Source: Shigella phage A2
Strand: one strand, 5' to 3'
Length of the DNA stretch: 64,000 bases
Sequence record: OP197928
The stretch's first letter is position 1. Every line of letters begins with the position of its first letter. The translations under genes and the position numbers were made by a program. The notes below the pieces were generated by a model, which searched no databases, was not told where the DNA came from, and saw nothing but the letters and a program-made list of their open reading frames with translations. Below are positions 4,377 to 7,015 of the stretch, in pieces.

Positions 4377-4850
4377 TTATTTAATTTGCTTAGCAGACCA
4401 AATGCGGTCTTTGATAATTTTTTGGATGTCTTCAACATACTCAAGAGAGTGAACATGTGGGTTATCTTTGAAACTATAAGCACGAGCTAGCTTTTGGCCT
4501 TCAGTTTTGATTACTAAAAGCTCTTTAAGGATAGCTTCATATTTGGAGATAATTCCTTTAACAATATTTTTCTCTTGTGCGACTTTAGGATCTGCTTTAG
4601 GAGCAGGTTTACCCGAAGCCTTTGCAAAAGCAGCGCCAGTAGCAACTAAACTTTTCCAGGCCATACTAACTGCATTTCCCGTAAATCCTTCCGCTTTCAT
4701 GTCGCGTGCGAACTGGAATCGCGATTCATCAGAAGCATCTTTGTAAGAATATTTACCCGCTGCAATGGCTGCTTTTGCGACAGCTTGAATTTCGGTGCTA
4801 GATGCTTCATTTAACACCGCTTCATTTAAAAATTGAGTATATGATTTCAT
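4377..4850 (-). CDS. internal-protein-like head protein with capsid targeting sequence (IP family)
   Basis: 157 aa; N-terminus MKSYTQFLNE|A = CTS-like; A/K-rich body. Confidence 0.7.
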   Translation of the reverse strand: MKSYTQFLNEAVLNEASSTEIQAVAKAAIAAGKYSYKDASDESRFQFARDMKAEGFTGNAVSMAWKSLVATGAAFAKASGKPAPKADPKVAQEKNIVKGIISKYEAILKELLVIKTEGQKLARAYSFKDNPHVHSLEYVEDIQKIIKDRIWSAKQIK

Positions 4851-4887
4851 CTTATTTCCTGTTTTAATTTGTAGATTTAATATACTT

Positions 4888-4895
4888 ATTTATAC
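4888..4895 (-). promoter_or_regulatory. T4-type late promoter TATAAATA (minus strand) upstream of IP-like gene 4377..4850
   Basis: plus-strand tatttata = TATAAATA on minus, about 40 nt upstream of ATG at 4850. Confidence 0.5.
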
Positions 4896-4925
4896 TAAAA
4901 AGCCCCAACCTTTCGGCTGGGGCTA
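4896..4925 (-). terminator. rho-independent terminator closing the tRNA/stable-RNA transcription unit
   Basis: Minus RNA: AGCCCCAGCCGAAAGGUUGGGGCU + UUUUUAG; near-duplicate of terminator at 4340-4369. Confidence 0.65.
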
Positions 4926-4976
4926 AGCCTTGCGGCAACCTTGTCGGGGTTCCACCTGCTAAGGCAAGTGTTTGTA

Positions 4977-5068
4977 CGAAACGCCGGGATTCGAACCCGG
5001 TTATCAAGCAGTTGACGCTACTCAATATTTTTAAAAGGCCATATCTCGACCATATCCGAACGTTCCGT
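4977..5068 (-). ncRNA. tRNA-like element / stable small RNA (resembles T4 species-1/2 RNA; not a canonical tRNA)
   Basis: Minus strand has a perfect T-arm CCGGG-UUCGAAU-CCCGG (4987-5003 region) and a 7-bp acceptor-like pairing CGGAACG/CGUUUCG (5062-5068 with 4978-4984), but a 60-nt body with no recognisable anticodon arm and no CCA. Confidence 0.4.
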
Positions 5069-5235
5069 CAAAAACGCTACTCGGCTTACGGCAAAGATAT
5101 TTCCTCGAATCGATAATTCGGTGCGCCGTTTCTGCTGTGATATAAGGGGACATTAACAAATCATAAAGATTTATTAATGCCAGTCCTTAAACAGGGAACA
5201 TCAGTCCGACGACTTACCGGTAGCGACCCGGTTTC

Positions 5236-5586
5236 TTAATATTCTTTTAAAGCATCAATCTGTTCACGGCGTTTACGCCATAAATCAATTGCTTCATACG
5301 CAGATTCAGCATTTCGAATTAGCCGGCATTTATGTAAAGACTTATGATTTTGATATTGTGTAGATAATGGAATTGTATCTAAAAGGTCTTTACGATCAAA
5401 GTATTCGTAACCATCTAAACCAAATGAACGATTTTTGAGAAATTGCCAATGGCCAAATTCATTTTCAACATAAACATAATCTGCATGCTGATAAAGTAAA
5501 TTAATTACACGTTCAGAAATAACAGTATCATTATGATTAAAATAGAATGTTAAATCATGAACTACTAAATAAACATTACCTTTCAT
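5236..5586 (-). CDS. hypothetical protein embedded in the tRNA/stable-RNA operon
   Basis: 116-aa ORF between tRNA-Arg and the tRNA-like RNA; no recognisable motif (no GIY-YIG/HNH signature). Confidence 0.5.
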   Translation of the reverse strand: MKGNVYLVVHDLTFYFNHNDTVISERVINLLYQHADYVYVENEFGHWQFLKNRSFGLDGYEYFDRKDLLDTIPLSTQYQNHKSLHKCRLIRNAESAYEAIDLWRKRREQIDALKEY

Positions 5587-5602: not shown

Positions 5603-5678
5603 TGGTCGAGGCAGTAGGGATCGAACCTACGACCTAGGACTTAGAAGGTCCTTGCTCTTCCTTCTGAGCTATGCCCCG
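5603..5678 (-). tRNA. tRNA-Arg (anticodon UCU)
   Basis: Hand-folded cloverleaf on minus strand: acceptor CGGGGCA/UGCCUCG, anticodon loop CUUCUAA, T-loop GGUUCGAUCC, encoded CCA. Confidence 0.85.
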
Positions 5679-5682
5679 TAAT

Positions 5683-5758
5683 TGGGGTGACCGATGGGAG
5701 TCGAACCCATGACTACGAGAATCACAATCTCGAGTTCTACCAACTGAACTACGGCCAC
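5683..5758 (-). tRNA. tRNA-His (anticodon GUG)
   Basis: Acceptor GUGGCCG/CGGUCAC, anticodon stem CGAGA/UCUCG, loop UUGUGAU, T-arm AUGGG-UUCGACU-CCCAU, discriminator C + CCA; no encoded G(-1). Confidence 0.75.
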
Positions 5759-5872
5759 ATTAATATCTACTCCAACAATCATGATGTCTTCACACGAAAT
5801 TAAGAGAAGAGTGATCAGTTCAACCCCTATAATCGCGTCAAGTAGATATTAATGTGACAGTTGTCACAAATT

Positions 5873-5947
5873 TGGCGGACGTGATAGGATTCGAACCTAT
5901 AACCAATCGCTTAACAGGCGATCGCTCTGCCATTGAGCTACACATCC
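5873..5947 (-). tRNA. tRNA-Asn (anticodon GUU)
   Basis: Acceptor GGAUGUG/CACGUCC, anticodon stem AUCGC/GCGAU, loop CUGUUAA, T-loop UUCGAAU, CCA encoded. Confidence 0.8.
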
Positions 5948-5951
5948 AAAT

Positions 5952-6038
5952 TGGTGGGGAGTGGTGGAGTCGAACCACCCGAGTCGCAATGACAATGGAT
6001 TTACAGTCCACACCGCTACCTCTACGGGATAACTCCCC
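5952..6038 (-). tRNA. tRNA-Tyr (anticodon GUA), class II with long variable arm
   Basis: 87 nt; acceptor GGGGAGU/ACUCCCC perfect, anticodon loop CUGUAAA, T-arm GGUGG-UUCGACU-CCACC, CCA encoded. Confidence 0.8.
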
Positions 6039-6051
6039 TTAATTCTTAATT

Positions 6052-6126
6052 TGGTGGCCCTGGGTGGAATTGAACCACCATCTGGCGATTATGAGTCGCT
6101 TGCTTGAACCTTCCAGCTACAGGGCC
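6052..6126 (-). tRNA. tRNA with CAU anticodon (Ile2/lysidine type as in T4, or elongator Met)
   Basis: Acceptor GGCCCUG/CAGGGCC, anticodon loop CUCAUAA, T-arm GGUGG-UUCAAUU-CCACC, CCA encoded. Confidence 0.8.
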
Positions 6127-6127
6127 T

Positions 6128-6203
6128 TGGTGCTGATTGACGGAATCGAACCGCCGACCTTCTCATTACAAGTGAGTTGCTCTACCTACTGAGCTAAATC
6201 AGC
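6128..6203 (-). tRNA. tRNA-Thr (anticodon UGU)
   Basis: Acceptor GCUGAUU/AAUCAGC, anticodon loop CUUGUAA, T-loop UUCGAUU, CCA encoded; 1-nt spacer to neighbour. Confidence 0.85.
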
Positions 6204-6208
6204 AAAAC

Positions 6209-6298
6209 TGGCGGAGGCGATAGGATTTGAACCTATGAGTCGCCGGAGCGACTGCCGGTTTTCAAGACCGGTGCATTAAACCACTCTGCCACGCCTCC
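6209..6298 (-). tRNA. tRNA-Ser (anticodon UGA), class II
   Basis: 90 nt; acceptor GGAGGCG/CGCCUCC, anticodon stem CCGGU/ACCGG loop CUUGAAA, long variable arm, T-loop UUCAAAU, CCA encoded. Confidence 0.85.
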
Positions 6299-6300
6299 AG

Positions 6301-6374
6301 TCTCCATACAAGGATTTGAACCTTGGACCTCCTGATCCCAAATCAGGCGCTCTACCAAACTGAGCTACACGGAG
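6301..6374 (-). tRNA. tRNA-Pro (anticodon UGG)
   Basis: Acceptor CUCCGUG/UAUGGAG (two G-U pairs), anticodon loop UUUGGGA, T-loop UUCAAAU; CCA not encoded. Confidence 0.8.
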
Positions 6375-6384
6375 TAAATTAAAT

Positions 6385-6458
<74 letters not shown>

Positions 6459-6463
6459 AAATT

Positions 6464-6550
6464 TGGTGCGAGAAGTGGGACTCGAACCCACAAGGAAATC
6501 ATTCCGCAGCATTTTAAGTGCTGTGCCTTTACCAATTTGACCATTCTCGC
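6464..6550 (-). tRNA. tRNA-Leu (anticodon UAA), class II
   Basis: 87 nt; acceptor GCGAGAA/UUCUCGC, anticodon stem CAGCA/UGCUG loop CUUAAAA, long variable arm, T-loop UUCGAGU, CCA encoded. Confidence 0.85.
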
Positions 6551-6551
6551 G

Positions 6552-6624
6552 CTGGGAATAAAGGACTCGAACCTTTGCATCCTGGAATCAAAATCCAGTG
6601 CCTTACCAACTTGGCTAATTCCCA
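6552..6624 (-). tRNA. tRNA-Gln (anticodon UUG)
   Basis: Acceptor UGGGAAU/AUUCCCA, anticodon stem CUGGA/UCCAG loop UUUUGAU, T-loop UUCGAGU; CCA not encoded; first gene of the array (promoter-proximal). Confidence 0.85.
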
Positions 6625-6721: not shown

Positions 6722-7015
6722 TTACCATTTATGATAATACATATTTACGATGCATTCAAGACCCAAAGGATTCTTGAAAATATCATATTCAAGAGGACCT
6801 TTTTCTGTTTCAATAAAGAAATCAAAATTTACTGTATTAAATTTACGGTCTTCCTTTACTAATTTAACTTGTGAAGATGAACGGTCAATGTAAACCTTTT
6901 CAACTTCAAAATATGTTAAAATGCCATAATCATCAATCAAGGCTTTAGCCGCGTCTTGATCATATTTATATCCATTTTCAATGGACGATACTTTCGCATA
7001 AAGAATCATTATCAA
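6722..7015 (-). CDS. hypothetical protein
   Basis: 97-aa ORF; ATGA overlap with next gene. Confidence 0.5.
   Translation of the reverse strand: MIMILYAKVSSIENGYKYDQDAAKALIDDYGILTYFEVEKVYIDRSSSQVKLVKEDRKFNTVNFDFFIETEKGPLEYDIFKNPLGLECIVNMYYHKW

Follow-up and report, generated by a model that had tools for sequence, protein, structure and literature searches.

The distal end of the transfer RNA (tRNA) operon in a 64,000-nt stretch of DNA from Shigella phage A2 (sequence record OP197928; hereafter, the window) carries on its minus strand, at 4926–5235, an interval that lies between a cluster of 11 tRNA genes and the operon terminator. Judged by alignment, this interval is made up of the orthologues of two small stable RNAs of phage T4, rnaD and rnaC, which are the last genes before the operon terminator. 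The interval is colinear, without rearrangement, with the genomes of T4 and RB27. The aligned bases in T4 (NC_000866) are annotated as misc_RNA, namely rnaD (“small, stable RNA; species 2 RNA”; 119 nt) and rnaC (“species 1 RNA”; 139 nt), and those in RB27 as the ncRNAs rnaD (“species II RNA”) and rnaC. Transfer of the T4 annotation places the 139-nt rnaC at 4975–5113 (minus strand), where it starts with UCGAUUCGAGG and ends with CGUUUCGUA; by alignment to the annotated T4 and RB27 genes, rnaD occupies approximately 5120–5239 on the same strand, and the alignment leaves a spacer of 6 nt between the two, GAAUUA (5114–5119). The window rnaC is identical to T4 rnaC at 136 of 139 positions, with three positions that differ, and rnaD matches T4 rnaD in 104 of 121 aligned columns. 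Gene position agrees with homology: rnaC follows rnaD and precedes the terminator stem at 4924–4901, and rnaD is located directly upstream of rnaC, from which it is parted by the same spacer. The kind of RNA at this locus is already known: both RNAs date from the 1970s and form part of the T4 reference annotation.

A first-pass annotation, made from the letters of the window alone, had reported a tRNA-like element here and likened it to the T4 species 1 and species 2 RNAs. Its observation is partly confirmed and its main interpretation supported, the likeness being sharpened to orthology by the colinear alignment. Two checks that it had proposed were carried out: alignment to T4 rnaC and rnaD, in which both genes proved orthologous, and structure prediction with a covariance search, which returned a four-way junction and a covariance-model score of 153.6 bits. 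The tRNA-like element corresponds to the 3′ two-thirds of rnaC. Its perfect T arm, CCGGG-UUCGAAU-CCCGG, is read directly at 5000–4984 (minus strand); the body described as 60 nt long is exactly that (5060–5001), and the CCA end is indeed missing, as the tail reads U-A-C-A (4976–4973). On the other hand, the non-coding sequence of “about 160 nt” said to separate the element from the terminator was placed on the wrong side. Only some 50 nt (4976–4925) lie downstream of it, and the long non-coding stretch (5235–5068; about 168 nt) is upstream and consists of rnaD, the 6-nt spacer and the 5′ part of rnaC.

The full-length rnaC (139–142 nt) has as its minimum free energy (MFE) fold a four-way junction, in the window (−49.3 kcal/mol) as well as in most homologues, and RNAalifold run on 30 sequences independently gave the same four-way junction. 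The architecture is tRNA-shaped: an acceptor-like helix, a bent hairpin, a 10-bp hairpin and a canonical T arm. With U1 of rnaC at window position 5113, the 5′ strand of the acceptor-like helix, CGAUUCG (rnaC 2–8; 5106–5112), is given by the MFE fold, RNAalifold and the pair counts, and the 3′ strand, CGUUUCG (rnaC 131–137; 4977–4983), by direct reading and the pair counts. The place of the D arm is taken by hairpin I (rnaC 9–78; 5036–5105), a long and bent structure of five sub-helices with small internal loops and a 3-nt bulge beneath the top stem. An A-rich linker (rnaC 79–86), in which AAAAU is near-invariant, leads to hairpin II (rnaC 87–112; 5002–5027) in the place of the anticodon arm, with a stem of 10 bp and a loop of 6 nt; a single A then precedes the T arm (rnaC 114–130; 4984–5000).

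To assess this fold, we used 34 distinct rnaC sequences from at least seven named phage genera. They were gathered by similarity searches and by two pattern scans in which the loop sequences were left unconstrained. A scan that did require the loops found 10 loci; the unconstrained scan found 109 stretches, mostly chance matches, from which 26 distinct rnaC sequences were left after filtering, with all loci pooled. When 30 distinct homologues were aligned with MAFFT, 89.9% of the cells were paired, against 39–46% in controls where the pairing partners were slid by one to three columns, and 30 of the 54 pairs showed changes on both sides. The covariance-model alignment of all 34 sequences gave 91.0% paired cells, against 37–47% in the slid controls, and compensatory changes at 31 of 54 pairs; such an alignment leans towards its own model, and the MAFFT figure is the more conservative one.

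In the covariance-model alignment, compensatory changes occur at 14 of the 20 lower pairs and five of the six top-stem pairs of hairpin I. Hairpin II, likewise, is supported by compensation at nine of its 10 pairs. The middle pair of the T arm covaries (G-C in 16 sequences, U-A in 16, A-U in one and U-G in one). The acceptor-like helix (2–8/131–137) includes four invariant Watson–Crick pairs, two U·U oppositions that are invariant in 34 of 34 sequences, and one compensatory pair, A-U in the T4-type sequences (14) and G-C elsewhere (20). The lengths of hairpin I (71–73 nt) and hairpin II (26 nt) hold in all 35 sequences, and about half of the positions in hairpin I vary between clades. Because the pairs compensate and the hairpin lengths are fixed despite such divergence, the shape of rnaC is under selection, and a decaying pseudogene is excluded. 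The purifying selection on this shape is strong and holds across at least seven named genera.

The apical loops of the two hairpins are complementary. The loop of hairpin I reads UUGACG (5071–5066, minus strand) and that of hairpin II reads CGUCAA (5017–5012, minus strand): they are exact reverse complements, and the complementarity ends exactly at the loop boundaries. The chance of Watson–Crick complementarity between two random 6-nt loops is 4^−6, or about 2.4e-4. Both loops are invariant in 29 of the 34 distinct sequences, and the remaining five, of the Marfavirus clade, carry UUGGCG and CGCCAA; the only variation is thus a joint A-U to G-C change (A-U in 29, G-C in five). All 204 loop–loop cells are paired (204/204), compared to 16–51% in the slid controls. 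These patterns suggest that the loops may form a 6-bp kissing interaction. A metagenome scan yielded no new loop variants, and consequently, the putative kissing interaction still counts as one compensatory event. A rough base-pair count, offered as an estimate, fits an intramolecular kiss: hairpin II (10), the kiss (6) and the top stem (6) add up to about 22 bp, close to the length of what is left of hairpin I beneath the 3-nt bulge, so that the two stacks might run alongside each other and meet at the junction. At the DNA level, TTGACG…CGTCAA might be read as an inverted-repeat protein site or as a −35-like hexamer, for which no −10 element was found at the proper spacing. Since the two hexamers coincide exactly with the apical loops of RNA hairpins that covary, RNA pairing is the simpler reading, although a role at the DNA level is conceivable.

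Conventional tRNA models do not recognise the element. ARAGORN called neither a tRNA nor a transfer-messenger RNA (tmRNA) at the element, and the Rfam tRNA model did not match it at the gathering threshold. No curated Rfam family reached its gathering score between 4850 and 5300, where only weak, chance-level matches were seen; the best tRNA-type match in a permissive scan, tRNA-Sec (16.4 bits, E = 1.6; threshold 47), was not significant. Rfam appears to be without a model for rnaC or rnaD. The covariance model built from the homologues (R1), by contrast, scores E about 1e-32 with a match spanning 4973–5113, the single copy in the window. The features of a canonical tRNA are present in part: the acceptor-like helix abuts a T arm with the T-loop motif UUCGAAU, and the terminal helix would stack coaxially on that arm. 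However, the loop of hairpin II has 6 nt, not the 7 nt of an anticodon loop, and the D arm has given way to a hairpin of 71 nt. A 3′ NCCA is not encoded in the window rnaC, and the tail is U-ACA in 29 of the 34 distinct homologues. With respect to tmRNA, position 3:70 of the conserved rnaC helix is A-U or G-C and not G3·U70.

Homologues of rnaC occur in Tequatrovirus, Dhakavirus, Mosigvirus (AV113), Karamvirus, Kanagawavirus, Marfavirus, Moonvirus and Gelderlandvirus, as well as in PEi20-like Edwardsiella and Klebsiella phages and in the unclassified phages SonariX, Ursula and COW86c. In Karamvirus, Gelderlandvirus, SonariX and COW86c, rnaC is located mid-cluster between tRNA-Trp and tRNA-Gly, and rnaD is absent there. 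A spacer of the AAUUAU type parts rnaC from rnaD in T4 and from the CCA of the upstream tRNA in other genera. The 3′ tail is U-CCA in the Marfavirus clade only, and the T loop occurs in the variants UUCGAGU, UUCGAGC, UUCAAGU and UUCAAAU. Natural, precise deletions of rnaC exist in two phages, Dhakavirus MX01 (L143, 401–608) and CUA3 (L006): at the junction, the 3′ end of rnaD (…GGCGCACCGAA) is joined straight to the trailer (CACUUGCC…). No other match to rnaC was found in the MX01 genome, and Dhakavirus LHE83 retains the gene. MX01 and CUA3 amount to ready-made rnaC knock-outs.

Two side observations concern these homologues. In four Klebsiella phages of the genus Marfavirus (L019, L027, L037 and L039), a conserved non-coding stretch, GUAAGGGGUGGAAAUAUCUUCAGGA…CCCACUCCAAGG, occurs between tRNA-Met and rnaC, some 85 nt upstream of the latter; it occupies the place of rnaD in T4, is unrelated to it in sequence, and may represent a third type of small RNA. 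Furthermore, only a few curated records (T4, RB27, RB68 and T2L) name rnaC. Elsewhere in GenBank, the homologue is labelled tRNA-OTHER, tRNA-Lys, tRNA-Met (95 nt), tRNA-Phe or “hypothetical protein”, or left blank (e.g., MK373779, MK327946, PQ898399 and OK210076); many phage records, therefore, mis-annotate it.

Release of species 1 RNA in T4 we take to be dependent on RNase P. Based on the anatomy of rnaC and the known processing of T4 tRNAs, we infer the following course of events. Transcription that starts at promoters upstream of the tRNA cluster would read through into the window rnaC. RNase P would cut at the 5′ side, recognising the acceptor/T-arm stack as it does in tRNA, and the 3′ trailer would be trimmed; rnaC would then accumulate as a compact stable RNA, the kissing loops closing its body into that compact shape. 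In T4, the tRNA operon gives a primary transcript that spans the cluster and ends beyond the species I RNA gene (PMC2330249), and RNAC is a discrete, stable RNA that is abundant late in infection (PMC9697503). The latter work, a transcriptome study from 2022 that reports Northern validation with an RNAC probe, ranks RNAC and RNAD among the late RNAs “of yet unknown functions” (PMC9697503); the functions of both are also given as unknown elsewhere (PMC3014915). In experimental evolution published in 2025, a convergent single-nucleotide polymorphism was found in rnaD of a T4-like phage, and the functions were again called unknown (PMC12685909). Our literature search for a function or a tertiary structure of rnaC or rnaD returned only such statements, some 50 years on. 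We did not find the architecture of the rnaC fold described in the literature searched, which was outside the 1970s sequence papers, where it may already have been drawn. Taken jointly, orthology with T4 rnaD and rnaC, a tRNA-shaped rnaC with putative kissing loops, and the presumed read-through transcription and RNase P release of a stable RNA very probably constitute the best explanation of the interval.

A different anatomy was drawn in the first-pass annotation, namely a self-contained element of about 91 nt in which CGGAACG (5067–5061) and CGUUUCG (4983–4977) form the acceptor. Both strings are real, and in the window and in T4-type sequences, seven pairs between them are possible, one being a G·U that would resemble the G3·U70 wobble; it is this version that the Rfam tRNA-Sec model weakly aligns (the match at 16.4 bits, E = 1.6). 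However, the pairing is not conserved: at three of its seven positions, the bases fail to pair in 17, 11 and seven of 30 homologues, respectively, and no position shows a compensatory change. Residues 49–54 of rnaC covary with residues 37–42 in the top stem of hairpin I, five of these six pairs showing double changes, and C47 and G48 lie in the invariant loop of hairpin I. CGGAACG, hence, takes in the last two bases of that loop and continues along the 3′ side of the top stem, and we have rejected it as an acceptor strand. In T4-type sequences, its pairing with CGUUUCG is made possible solely by the presence of two copies of GCGUUU (rnaC 37–42 and 130–135). Both the MFE fold and RNAalifold pick the terminal helix instead, and the annotated mature RNA of T4 starts 46 nt upstream of the internal acceptor. 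This anatomy, with its internal acceptor strand, its 91-nt element and its extra sequence downstream, is wrong in detail and very unlikely to apply. The same annotation had offered a decayed tRNA as an alternative, that is, a pseudogene freed from selection in which the D and anticodon arms have degenerated. A perfect T arm in an otherwise un-tRNA-like sequence, a location amongst tRNA genes where tRNA finders are silent, and the labels tRNA-OTHER, tRNA-Lys, tRNA-Met and tRNA-Phe in some GenBank records would all agree with decay, and a distant origin of rnaC from a tRNA gene is plausible. Yet it is the non-tRNA body that is richest in compensation (28 of 36 pairs in hairpins I and II), the hairpin lengths are fixed, the loops are invariant or covary, the element is kept in at least seven named genera, and RNAC builds up as a discrete species in T4-infected cells (PMC9697503). 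Given compensation at 31 of the 54 pairs overall and 91% paired cells against 37–47% in the slid controls, a decayed tRNA was rejected as extremely unlikely.

A conserved structure could also serve purely in cis, by offering an entry site for processing or by stabilising the 3′ end of the tRNA precursor, the released RNA being without a role. In T4-type phages, rnaC is the last structured element before the terminator, it is processed from the same precursor as the tRNAs (PMC2330249), and its natural deletions are tolerated. Against this, rnaC is mid-cluster and not 3′-terminal in the Karamvirus, Gelderlandvirus, SonariX and COW86c arrangements; the invariance of the complementary loops and of the U·U oppositions, together with the fixed lengths of the helices, goes well beyond the needs of a nuclease entry site; and, once released, the T4 RNA is stable and reaches high abundance late in infection (PMC9697503). 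We consider a purely cis-acting element improbable. That the interval encodes small proteins has the least to commend it, and we regard it as next to impossible. Two open reading frames (ORFs) are indeed listed, 5159–5031 (42 amino acids) and 5025–4864 (53 amino acids), and many records carry a “hypothetical protein” under the match. But both frames open with TTG, the substitutions preserve base pairs and not reading frames, the homologues differ by insertions and deletions of 1–3 nt inside the region, and the curated T4 and RB27 records annotate RNAs here.

Several points weigh against parts of our preferred explanation, i.e., a tRNA-shaped rnaC with kissing loops that RNase P would release. 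The presumed ends of rnaC, U1 or C2 on the 5′ side and UA or UACA on the 3′ side, are borrowed from the T4 annotation. The acceptor helix has one covarying pair only, the invariant remainder being neutral on pairing. The kissing interaction is suggested by one evolutionary event together with exact complementarity, and it could be intermolecular, as in a head-to-tail dimer. RNase P cleavage of rnaC is presumed, from its anatomy and from the T4 background of the 1970s. In the IME523-like clade of Kanagawavirus (L021, L046 and L113), the T loop is the non-canonical UGCAUGC in an rnaC that is otherwise intact, both kissing loops included; the canonical T-loop motif would, therefore, be dispensable for whatever maintains rnaC. 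Likewise, the precise deletion of rnaC in MX01 and CUA3 implies that any function is dispensable in some settings.

As for what that function might be, a role as decoy or scaffold is speculative. We tentatively entertain, as a possible reading and not the favoured one, that rnaC constitutes a conserved tRNA-shaped family in enterobacterial T4-like phages, whose functional core, e.g., for such a decoy or scaffold of a host or phage factor, would be the kissing-locked body and the acceptor with its invariant tandem U·U. The more specific proposal that rnaC acts in trans as a mimic of the tRNA “top half”, binding or diverting a factor that reads the acceptor and T arm while the kissing-locked body gives specificity, is our best guess at a function, yet an improbable one.

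The second RNA of the interval, rnaD, is a separate structured RNA and not a tRNA mimic. Its conserved sequence starts at about 5237 (AAGAAACCGGG), and its single-sequence fold has a z-score of −3.5. In 16 distinct homologues, RNAalifold gave an invariant closing helix, GUCGUCG/CGGCG(C)AC. The closing pair of the 5′ hairpin, ACCGG-GUCGCUA-CCGGU (5232–5216), covaries (A-U in nine, G-C in five and G-U in two of these homologues), and a short helix, UGAUG/yAUCA, shows a compensatory change (U-A in 12, A-U in two). For the central hairpin, there are at least three versions without relation to one another. At its 3′ end, rnaD reads …GGCGCACC-G, without an encoded CCA, and the CCA of T4 rnaD is not conserved (CACCG in the window, CACAG and CACCU elsewhere); as there is also no T arm beside the 3′ strand, a tRNA-like reading of rnaD was rejected.

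Outside the T4-like phages, an rnaD-like element is located after tRNA-Met in the Vequintavirinae (rV5-like) phages W70 (L147, OP778610, 1012–1118) and A73. Besides the rnaD core (AAGUCGUCGGACUGAUGUUCCCUG … AUCACAGCAGAAACGGCGCACC), it has a 5′ hairpin that covaries and a central hairpin that is shorter. Also in W70, an odd stretch resembling a tRNA proved to be a real one (35.8 bits). The rnaD core matched 810 phage records, Klebsiella and Enterobacter phages included. Its occurrence in these records and in W70 and A73 implies that the rnaD family is wider than the T4-like phages.

The surroundings of the two genes are those of a T4-type operon. A BLAST search of 4880–5260 against phage genomes matched 806 records, 678 of these with at least 80% query coverage; nearly all are T4-like phages of Escherichia, Shigella, Yersinia and relatives, and the window, hence, stems from a T4-like phage of the Tequatrovirus type. 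The 11 tRNA genes (Gln, Leu, Gly, Pro, Ser, Thr, Met, Tyr, Asn, His and Arg), identified by ARAGORN and Rfam tRNA matches, form a tight cluster on the minus strand at 5603–6624. The 3′ trailer between rnaC and the terminator (4925–4972) is conserved with T4 and kept in the phages that have deleted rnaC. The intrinsic terminator of the operon, found by a terminator scan (4896–4924, minus strand), has a 10-bp stem with a GAAA loop (4924–4901), followed by a U tract. The gene order tRNA-Arg, rnaD, rnaC is common to T4 and RB27 according to their GenBank records. In the window, an ORF of 116 amino acids (5236–5586, minus strand) from the ORF list is inserted between tRNA-Arg and rnaD. It has a good ribosome-binding site, and it matches phrog_3355 (E = 1.3e-53) and no Pfam family. 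Only a subset of Tequatroviruses carry it, and T4 and RB27 do not. Homology to T4 and RB27 resumes directly after it. This ORF is context outside the two RNAs, although its TAA stop overlaps the T4-equivalent 5′ end of rnaD, which implies that the 5′ end of rnaD would be made differently than beside tRNA-Arg.

A motif scan found no late promoter between the tRNAs and rnaD; the nearest late-promoter motifs on the minus strand are at 6970–6963 and further upstream, and at 4894–4887, beyond the terminator. Overall, the T4 late-promoter motif TATAAATA occurs at 23 sites in the window, where about 10 are expected. The copy at 4887–4894 (minus strand) lies immediately past the operon terminator, ahead of the gene starting at 4850, which fits a typical late transcription unit of the T4 type. 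Within the cluster, a spacer of about 114 nt (5759–5872, minus strand) separates tRNA-Asn from tRNA-His and harbours a 24-nt inverted repeat of 88% (5748–5771/5841–5864), the downstream arm of which reaches into the 5′ acceptor strand of tRNA-His. Approximately 100 nt of the spacer are kept upstream of tRNA-His in Klebsiella T4-like phages (82%). The unrelated Vequintavirinae phage W70, in which ARAGORN finds no tRNA-His, has a match of about 86% in unannotated sequence between tRNA-Gly and tRNA-Gln. Perhaps the spacer is a processed leader that has escaped annotation, or another small RNA.

Compared to T4, nothing material differs in rnaC, which has the same length and the same place after rnaD and before the terminator. 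The operons differ in that the window has 11 tRNAs and T4 has eight, and in the extra ORF between tRNA-Arg and the rnaD–rnaC pair. The 5′ hairpin, the closing helix and the 3′ end region of rnaD are shared with T4, whereas its central hairpin has diverged, its 3′ end reads CACC-G and not CACC-A, and its upstream neighbour is an ORF and not tRNA-Arg. With a canonical tRNA, rnaC shares an acceptor-like helix of seven positions abutting a 5-bp T arm with a UUCGAAU loop, a four-way junction, and a setting in a tRNA operon with tRNA-like spacers; it differs by the lack of a D arm, of a 7-nt anticodon loop and of an encoded CCA, by its two U·U oppositions and by its 139 nt. In tmRNA (SsrA), as in rnaC, the 5′ and 3′ ends of a longer RNA form an acceptor plus T arm, and the body is swapped for another structure that includes tertiary or pseudoknot-type pairings, putative in the case of rnaC; rnaC has no G3·U70 alanine identity pair, no CCA and no tag reading frame, and it is much shorter. 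The bacterial and phage Y-RNA-like YrlA and the mascRNA-type mimics are further non-coding RNAs that use the tRNA shape and its processing enzymes. The tRNA-like module of YrlA is internal and its termini form the Ro-binding stem, whereas the termini of rnaC form the acceptor. The Rfam scan gave no sequence or model match of the element to YrlA or mascRNA-type RNAs.

As a result of a genome scan, the finding is ordinary, as it re-identifies two RNAs known since the 1970s, and a reader with only the sequence recognised them, yet drew the wrong acceptor helix. What remains of interest is the well-supported fold of rnaC with its probable kissing loops. The strong purifying selection on its shape argues that rnaC has a real function and is not a relic, and the complementary loops, the invariant U·U oppositions and the natural deletion strains would provide concrete handles on the role of the species 1 RNA.

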